DNA of 16,039 nt, from assembly GCA_964573245.1 (NCBI GenBank), contig CAZNJA010000032.1, positions 1 to 16,039 on the forward strand, written 5' to 3'. The notes below the pieces were generated by a model. That model ran no database searches. It had not been told where the DNA came from and saw nothing but the letters and a program-made list of their open reading frames with translations. Each line of letters opens with the position of its first letter. The first letter of the stretch is position 1. The position numbers and the translations under genes were made by a program. This document shows, one piece after another, positions 15,776-16,039 of this stretch. Source of the stretch: an uncultured bacterium. GTDB lineage: Bacteria; CAIJMQ01.

Positions 15776-16039
15776 TTAACCCTCTTTAATAATTTCAGGT
15801 TTTTTCCTGTGGCATCTGACGCATCCTTGATAACCATGCTTGCGTATTCTATTTAAAATATCATGCGGGTCACCTACACACTGAATCTTCTTGTTGGATA
15901 GAACACATCCTCTATTGGCGCTTACATAATCAAGAATGTGCCCCGTGTGCGTGATAATAAGGGCGGATTTCTCTTTCCCGCCGGTTCTACGACCCGCCCG
16001 CCTTGACTCGCTCCCTTTGGCGAGGCAGGTCGACTTGCC
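15776..16039 (-). CDS. sufC: SufC-like ABC ATPase (SmsC-like), C-terminal part only
   Basis: Not in the ORF track; translated by hand: [39 protein letters not shown]...[34 protein letters not shown]. Has the H-loop LIITH and a C-terminal CxxC. Confidence 0.88.
15977..16033. repeat. Composite (nested) palindromic element inside sufC
   Basis: 15977-15996 plus 16030-16033 match 14024-14047 at 23/24 nt, interrupted by a 33 bp hairpin at 15997-16029. Confidence 0.75.

Follow-up and report, generated by a model that had tools for sequence, protein, structure and literature searches.

Nested in-frame GC-rich palindromes in a SufC-like ATPase gene of an uncultured bacterium, probably members of dispersed REP/RPE-like repeat families

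Rickettsia palindromic elements (RPEs) have reportedly been described by Ogata et al. The mobile GC clusters of yeast mitochondria, including the 'byp' elements, are GC-rich palindromic mini-inserts in AT-rich genomes that also occur inside coding sequence; byp elements are bypassed by the ribosome, and the frame need not be kept. According to Di Nocera et al. (2013, PMC3733652), intragenic REPs belong to the GTAG and CGTC superfamilies of 20-40 bp GC-rich stem-loops with G-T pairs, which lie mostly outside genes, and the short elements RPE-4 and RPE-6 are classed as CGTC-tagged REPs. The same source also places intragenic REPs in DNA repair, ligase and tRNA-synthetase genes, with grouped inserts of 20-30 residues, and describes REP loops that can be variable and self-complementary (PMC3733652). 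RPEs and intragenic REPs are the closest known kinds to the elements reported here. Searches of open-access and bioRxiv full text, by topic and by element sequence words, returned no description of the present families.

The stretch of DNA analyzed (the window) is one whole contig of 16,039 nt (C32) from an assembly of 1.46 Mb in 110 contigs, 93% complete and with 38% G+C, which is referred to as G000. It was compared with eight other genomes of the phylum (G001-G008), of which G001-G003 are congeners and G004 represents a sister genus. The nested insert lies in a SufC/SmsC-like ABC ATPase gene, whose last 88 codons (its 3' part) occupy 15776..16039 on the minus strand, and the contig ends 10 nt past the 33-nt piece discussed below (16029 to 16039). 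A SufB/SufD/SmsB-like gene lies downstream of it (14602..15837, minus strand; context only), and pheT, which encodes the phenylalanyl-tRNA synthetase beta chain of 804 aa (12037..14451, minus strand), hosts an un-nested copy of the outer element. The best solved relatives of the ATPase were T. thermophilus SufC (2d2e, 6e-33), E. coli SufC and MJ0035. The alignment with 2d2e was broken exactly around the insert, with query residues 2-178 corresponding to chain residues 4-189 and query 212-262 to chain 191-240, indicating that the insert adds residues, and replaces none, in the loop that precedes the H-motif strand (ALIITH). When the full ATPase was modelled from an alignment of five sequences, the mean pLDDT was 35 and the model was unusable, so that the alignment to the solved SufC was used instead. 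The N-terminal 186 residues of the ATPase were absent from the G000 assembly as examined by tblastn. Elsewhere in the window, a 36-nt unit (GATATCACAAAACGTAAAAACATGGAAGAAGAATTG) occurs in four diverged copies at 8664-9554, within a 751-aa ORF (8187-10442); these units probably mark repeated domain linkers of a multi-domain protein.

The inner element at 15997..16029 reads CCCGCCTTGACTCGCTCCCTTTGGCGAGGCAGG and has the pattern CCCGCC-TTGA-CTCGC-loop-GCGAG-GCAGG, which defines the E family. It is nested in the loop of the outer element, between GACCCG and TCGA, and it has 33 nt, 23 of which are G or C (70%), as the earlier note had recorded; its left context is ...GGTTCTACGACCCG (in longer form ...CCCGCCGGTTCTACGACCCG), its right context is TCGA, and the cut can be placed at either of two positions 1 nt apart (G|G). 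The minus-strand ORF is continuous across the 33-mer, in agreement with the kept frame claimed there, and on this sense strand the element takes the T-G wobble form CCTGCC...GGCGGG. The hairpin of its own that was claimed for the piece agrees with the palindromic E pattern, but the predicted folds were weak (-7.1 and -6.9 kcal/mol, z -1.3 and -0.8) and 17 and 43 of 200 shuffles folded equally well. Because this hairpin is no more stable than shuffled sequence, its significance rests on recurrence and not on its fold.

Within G000, the 33-mer had five matches at up to 8 mismatches. The four others, with 3-8 mismatches, all lie outside any outer element: in RecR (C5:22448), in a PurL-like gene (C6:90), in an unknown 776-aa ORF (C20:20047), and at C33:14284, where no open frame was found. 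Six more matches were found in the two congeners G002 and G003, and others in other phyla (see below). Stand-alone copies, on which the idea of two separate element families in the earlier note depended, are therefore present. The frame in which E copies are read varies from host to host, indicating that the repeating unit is DNA and not a peptide. The RecR copy (C5:22448-22480, L159) lies, by our own reading, between the CxxC...CxxC cysteine pairs, as CDKCNSFTEG-KPASPNTASQGG-LCSIC.

The outer element belongs to a second family (F). Its left part at 15977..15996 consists of CCCGCC, the arm GGTTCTACGACC and the CG of the loop; homology to orthologous ATPase genes ends at 15976-15979. On the other side of the 33-mer, TCGA at 16030..16033 is the retained centre of the outer loop. 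The same TCGA is present in the pheT copy, and it is replaced by TAGA in the F copies of C16, C17, G001 and G002. The un-nested pheT element (14024..14056; boundaries ambiguous by 2 nt, CC) is 33 nt long, adds 11 residues (LRPRRVGEPAG), and reads ...GGTTCTCCGACCCG^TCGAGGTCGGAGACC at 14024-14063. Within the window, two matches to the 20-nt left arm were found (0 and 1 mismatch; pheT 14024-14043), a number seen in 0 of 200 shuffles, and the outer hairpin in its pheT form is strong compared with shuffles (z -3.3 and -2.7).

Four F copies were found in G000, one in G001 and one in G002. Three of them are plain (pheT, G001 and G002), and three bear inserts, namely those in the ATPase gene (33 + 30 nt), C16 (27 nt) and C17 (21 nt). 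By our own reading, the C16 copy lies upstream of a gene start and is hence non-coding. The earlier note had proposed that the two families share a CCCGCC/GGCGGG end, but no GGCGGG/GGCAGG partner stands at the opposite end of the F elements, and 4 of the 6 F copies read CC(C/T)TCC instead of CCCGCC. GTAG occurs inside the stem in 3 of the 4 G000 copies, and CGTC occurs in the loop. A 5' target motif TTCC, seen in 3 of 6 copies under one boundary choice, was too weak to claim.

The full composite was seen in L111, a metagenome contig of 3,249 nt that is 99.9% identical to window positions 15083-16039 (1 mismatch in 957 nt). Its order is ...TCTCTTT-CCCGCC-GGTTCTACGACC-CG-(33-mer)-TCGA-CTTGCCTCGCTCGCCTCTCGGCGAAGCGGG-GGTCGGAGACC-CC-AACAACTTACTTATGAC... 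The outer right arm GGTCGGAGACC, predicted to lie past position 16039, is thus present, and TCGA, which the earlier note had allowed might match by chance, is retained loop with the arm beyond it. The last bases of the window, whose divergence from the pheT copy had been noticed, were identified by L111 as the start of a second nested hairpin that is invisible in the window: its first 6 nt (CTTGCC) occupy 16034..16039, and the rest of its 30 nt in L111 is lost past the contig end. Relatives of this 30-nt hairpin were found at C24:4190, C13:1274, C31:794 and C17:22269. The net insert in the ATPase gene compared with the G001 orthologue is 96 nt, made up of three elements (33 + 33 + 30). In L111 it leaves an unbroken ATPase ORF of 278 aa, 32 of them extra residues, and the host frame has no stop over the 96 nt. 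The expected translation of the insert includes SPTPASPRGERGK...RRTGG and is rich in Pro, Ala, Gly, Arg and Ser. Minimum free energy folds of the 111-nt composite did not reproduce the three-hairpin nest as drawn and were modestly better than those of shuffles (z about -2.5).

None of the four relatives, namely the congeners G001-G003 and the sister genus G004, has an insert at the ATPase site, which is also empty in a ~92%-identical metagenome contig (10 differences in 125 nt; loose end at 15976). Note that these empty alleles, which the scheme of the earlier note implied, come from relatives that are ~8-25% divergent and not from the same strain. The pheT element is likewise absent from the orthologues in all four relatives (G001-G004), and one X2 contig skips exactly 14024-14056. 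Another site in pheT supplies a before/after pair, where G001 has a 33-nt element and G002 has the same element with a central 24-mer (CCCGCCTGCTACGAAGCGAGCAGA). An 11-kb syntenic alignment contained seven GC-rich/hairpin lineage-specific inserts of 30, 24, 66, 33, 24, 33 and 33 nt, all in genes and all multiples of three; these were chosen by eye from the indel list, and the ATPase insert was left out.

Nesting was specific in position. The nested pieces in F copies stand at CG|T(C/A)GA|GG in 4 of 4 cases (two in the ATPase gene, one each in C16 and C17), and each piece, on its own strand, lies in the CCCGC...AGG orientation directly 5' of T(C/A)GA. Since the C16 copy is non-coding, protein tolerance is not the sole reason for the nesting site in the loop, and a preference for the hairpin apical loop is the simplest reading. 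Hairpins within hairpin loops were found in other families too (C11:5109, C59:3280 and C70:3295). The stepwise insertion claimed in the earlier note agrees with the empty sites, the un-nested outer copies, the solo inner copies and the G001/G002 pheT pair, and stepwise nesting, by which the protein loop was grown in steps, is well supported.

Two further inserts were recorded. In G000, a 57-nt nested-hairpin composite (EPASPSSHPASPAKRGEQGG) at C22:10663-10719 (L155) lies in LigA, the NAD-dependent DNA ligase, just upstream of the adenylation-site region. In G002 pheT (L017/L055), opposite window position ~13114, there is a 66-nt insert (CCCGTTAGAAAT...ATTTCTAACAGGA) with an inner AGACGCC...GGCGTCT hairpin and a possible 6-nt duplication, TTTGTC, at its flanks; this insert looks more MITE-like than the elements with CCCGCC/GGCAGG ends (clamp elements).

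The clamp elements form a superfamily to which the 33-mer belongs. These palindromes, 21-39 nt long, run from CCCGCC to GGCAGG, which leaves a C-A mismatch on one strand and a T-G wobble on the other. CCCGCC..GGCAGG pairs in G000 numbered 88, compared with 11 in swapped-order controls, and oriented elements (CCCGCC-N9-27-GGCAGG) numbered 62, compared with 0 in the backwards control. The corresponding numbers of elements and backwards controls were 75/2 in G001, 76/0 in G002, 22/4 in G003, 1/1 in G004, 2/0 in G005, 24/2 in G006, 32/1 in G007 and 0/1 in G008; the distribution in the phylum is patchy. The element hosts seen were RecR, LigA, PheT, PurL-like and SufC-like. In G000, 35 of 66 loci lay in ORFs of at least 150 codons, which make up 88% of the genome, and 31 lay outside, some of them after gene ends; on the 593-kb contig C11 of G001, 21 of 43 elements were outside ORFs, which leave 18% of that contig. 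Element lengths were multiples of three in 27 of 28 cases in ORFs of at least 200 codons and in 19 of 34 outside (G000, p = 0.0003), and this was repeated on the G001 contig (20 of 22 inside, 8 of 21 outside, p = 0.0004). The frame is nearly always kept inside genes and far less often outside; the elements appear to be tolerated in genes only if they are in frame, and the intragenic ones are hence probably translated. There was no significant bias in orientation relative to the host gene (17:11 in G000, 13:9 on the G001 contig), and no clear target motif was found outside hairpin loops.

In one-genome-per-species contigs, the E pattern CCCGCCTTRA-N10-13-GGCGAGGCAGG was found at 53 loci, where chance would give ~2 matches by a rough estimate that assumes even base composition. 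About 30 of the 53 were in AT-rich records, namely Patescibacteria lineages, Omnitrophota- and Ratteibacteria-labelled records and others, and TTGACTCG, the part free of the search pattern, is common to them. About 18 were set aside as probably not the element, ~12 of them representing one GC-rich Opitutae/Verrucomicrobiota gene with common flanks and ~6 lying in GC-rich DNA. Some E copies are tandem (L080). In two sets, L059/L072/L073 and L063/L094/L108, orthologues from different classes have the copy at one shared site amid diverged flanks, and the C20 copy of G000 is common to L067 and L096, with flanks 74-82% identical. Such same-site copies in distant taxa could reflect old vertical inheritance with conservation of the element, and not mobility. 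The E pattern had 0 matches in viral contigs, which gave no lead to a phage vector.

Other repeats of G000 were recorded alongside. A tRNA-Ala(GGC) gene runs from C58:8260 to the contig end, and a tRNA-like copy stands ~170 nt away, at C58:8087-8164. Its T-arm and D-side sequence match those of the gene, but the repeat hairpin CTCCGACGTCACGTCGGAG takes the place of the anticodon stem-loop, and the copy was not called by ARAGORN. At C13:14530-14650 and at C48:2600-2660 and 5040-5400, intergenic hairpins stand amid degenerate heptamers (TAGATAC TGGATGC TCGATAC; TTAATTG repeats). Heptamer runs of the same kind flank the RAYT-like genes of G002 described below.

We consider it probable, at roughly 75%, that the 33-mer is one copy from a dispersed, REP/RPE-like family of tiny imperfect GC-rich palindromes, which are probably either selfish or once-mobile DNA, and that it reached its present place by stepwise nesting. 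On this reading, a 33-nt F hairpin would have inserted in frame into the surface loop before the ATPase H-motif strand, and the 33-nt E element and the 30-nt hairpin would then have inserted into the F apical loop, both immediately 5' of its TCGA and each on its own strand. The 96-nt composite would stay in the mRNA and be translated as 32 extra residues. No RNA run was found to contain the stretch. Presence/absence patterns between species point to mobility of the elements. By analogy with REP/RAYT and IS200/IS605, they may move as folded single-stranded DNA, with recognition by a trans-acting enzyme directed at hairpin loops. In the filled/empty comparisons, no target duplication was seen beyond 1-3 ambiguous bases (CC at pheT, AGG at the G001 24-mer).

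The earlier note had suggested a common mobilizing enzyme; however, none of the Y1/RAYT genes of G000-G002 could be tied to either family. No active HUH transposase was found in G000 or G001 (genomes examined 81-96% complete). G000 has one Y1-like ORF, which scored 33 bits against a cut-off of 80 for the REP-associated transposase, and G001 had no match to Y1_Tnp despite its 75 elements. The N-terminal domain of the G000 ORF (L013:1429-2739, on C12; 436 aa) weakly resembles Y1 transposases; by our own reading, other residues stand in place of its HUH histidines, whereas its Tyr motif is retained. Next come a hydrophobic stretch and a C-terminal region that resembles a neighbouring 202-aa ORF, and the counterpart of the ORF in G003 has 446 aa. 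G002 has four RAYT/TIRYT-like genes (L119, L120, L122 and L123; 224-326 aa), whose HUH and Tyr motifs we read as intact. These are flanked by their own unrelated inverted repeats, REPtron-style CCACCTCG(T/G)AGGTGG hairpins in the case of L123, and not by clamp elements, and no counterparts of them were found in G000 or G001. Strand counts on the G001 contig C11 were 27:16 (p = 0.13, not significant), and GC skew there was noisy. A bolder proposal, which we put forward tentatively and regard as rather doubtful, is that clamp-ended (CCCGCC/GGCAGG) mini-hairpins of 21-39 nt make up a superfamily that spans several phyla and is still active in uncultured bacteria of the streamlined kind (the present lineage, Patescibacteria, and Omnitrophota- and Ratteibacteria-labelled genomes). 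They would be moved by a non-RAYT enzyme that integrates them preferentially where another DNA hairpin has its apical loop, beside T(C/A)GA.

Several other explanations of the locus were weighed. The most probable of them, although unlikely, is that the hairpins are functional modules under selection and not selfish DNA: at the RNA level their structures would modulate decay, translation or termination of the mRNA, or else the encoded peptide loops would be useful. The stems, having T-G wobbles in one strand and C-A mismatches in the other, would suit RNA pairing, the element is better conserved than its flanks at the common sites in distant taxa, and the 31 of 66 loci outside long ORFs fall in ~12% of the genome, some after gene ends. 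However, the elements show no significant preference for either orientation in their host genes (17:11 and 13:9), one and the same element is found in different frames in unrelated proteins, close relatives lack the element at every site examined in the window, and the sister genus G004 has 1 copy, compared with 62-76 in genus g1. It is very improbable that the extra 33 nt were made locally, by template switching or by slippage extending a palindrome, and not by the arrival of a pre-existing element. The piece does lie exactly in a hairpin loop, where replication template switching would be expected, and variable self-complementary loops are described within REP families (PMC3733652); but the 33-mer recurs (3-8 mismatches) in unrelated genes that lack the outer element, in other species and in other phyla, and the other three nested pieces are different family members with copies elsewhere.

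Still less probable is removal of the insert before or during translation, by a mini-intron, by ribosomal bypass like that of mitochondrial 'byp' GC clusters, or by protein splicing, in which case the protein loop would not have grown. GC-rich hairpins in an AT-rich genome do resemble the yeast mitochondrial mobile GC clusters and bypass elements. Removal would not need multiples of three, yet these prevail within genes (27/28 and 20/22, against 19/34 and 8/21 outside), and the 96 nt contain no stop codon in the host frame. The least probable explanation is an assembly artefact, in which a chimeric contig end simulates a nest that the cell does not have. The contig stops 10 nt after the 33-mer, its last 6 nt are unlike the pheT copy, and repeats do break assemblies: by our own tally, ~8 of 66 clamp-element loci are within 300 nt of a contig end (C6:90, C30:165, C40:170, C90:94, C101:283, and the ends of C82, C29 and C32), compared with ~3 expected, so that clamp repeats seem to break this assembly. 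Nevertheless, the separately assembled L111 has the same junctions in an intact gene, and Logan contigs of two runs (X2 record 16 and X4 record 28) span 15909/15987-16039 and beyond.

Dispersed, probably selfish or formerly mobile palindromes can then be set against the known kinds. Like RPEs, they are palindromic repeats found in frame in housekeeping genes of a small AT-rich genome and predicted to be read through, leaving the gene intact (+11 aa in pheT, +32 aa in the ATPase); they also occur between genes, and RPEs too have no known dedicated transposase. They differ from RPEs, from which they are set apart by description, in being found in another phylum (9 species genomes examined) and not in Rickettsia, in having no CGTC tag, and in their units of 21-39 nt; they also differ in forming several families with CCCGCC/GGCAGG ends that are nested in each other's loops, with the same unit across phyla. 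Like REPs, they are short GC-rich imperfect palindromes with many dispersed copies (62 vs 0) and are preferentially extragenic (31/66 outside ORFs covering 88% of the genome). However, the terminal GTAG/CGTC tag of REPs was not found, E elements ending in CCCGCC and GGCAGG; the arrangement is nested, whereas REPs form head-to-head or tail-to-tail dimers; and, as regards a REPtron, element numbers do not follow Y1 transposase genes in G000-G002. With IS200/IS605 and REP/RAYT systems they share imperfect hairpins and the lack of target duplication beyond 1-3 ambiguous bases; the nested pieces stand by T(C/A)GA (4/4), and other sites show no clear motif. The strand bias is not significant and an active HUH transposase was not found in G000 or G001, and this serves as a working analogy only. 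A MITE assignment was rejected, as there is a 1-3 nt boundary ambiguity in place of a fixed-length target-site duplication and no parent IS was seen. Yeast mitochondrial GC clusters are similar in being GC-rich palindromic mini-inserts, including inside coding sequence, in an AT-rich genome; unlike in 'byp' elements, the multiple-of-three rule here points to translation.

The locus displays all stages of a process of which usually only the end product is seen: an empty site, a single hairpin, and a hairpin with one or two more in its loop, the outcome being 32 extra residues in an essential-type ATPase. Such elements break assemblies, as here, and inflate apparent protein divergence. Strict nesting in loops, together with the lack of a matching transposase, poses a concrete question about the mobilizing mechanism. 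If the loop-targeted superfamily proposed above is real, palindromes would seed palindromes, and essential proteins would have their surface loops lengthened by 7-13 residues at each step, which would be a distinct, loop-targeted way to make protein insertions. If the elements are mobile, they would steadily generate in-frame length variants of housekeeping proteins in uncultured bacteria that have small genomes.
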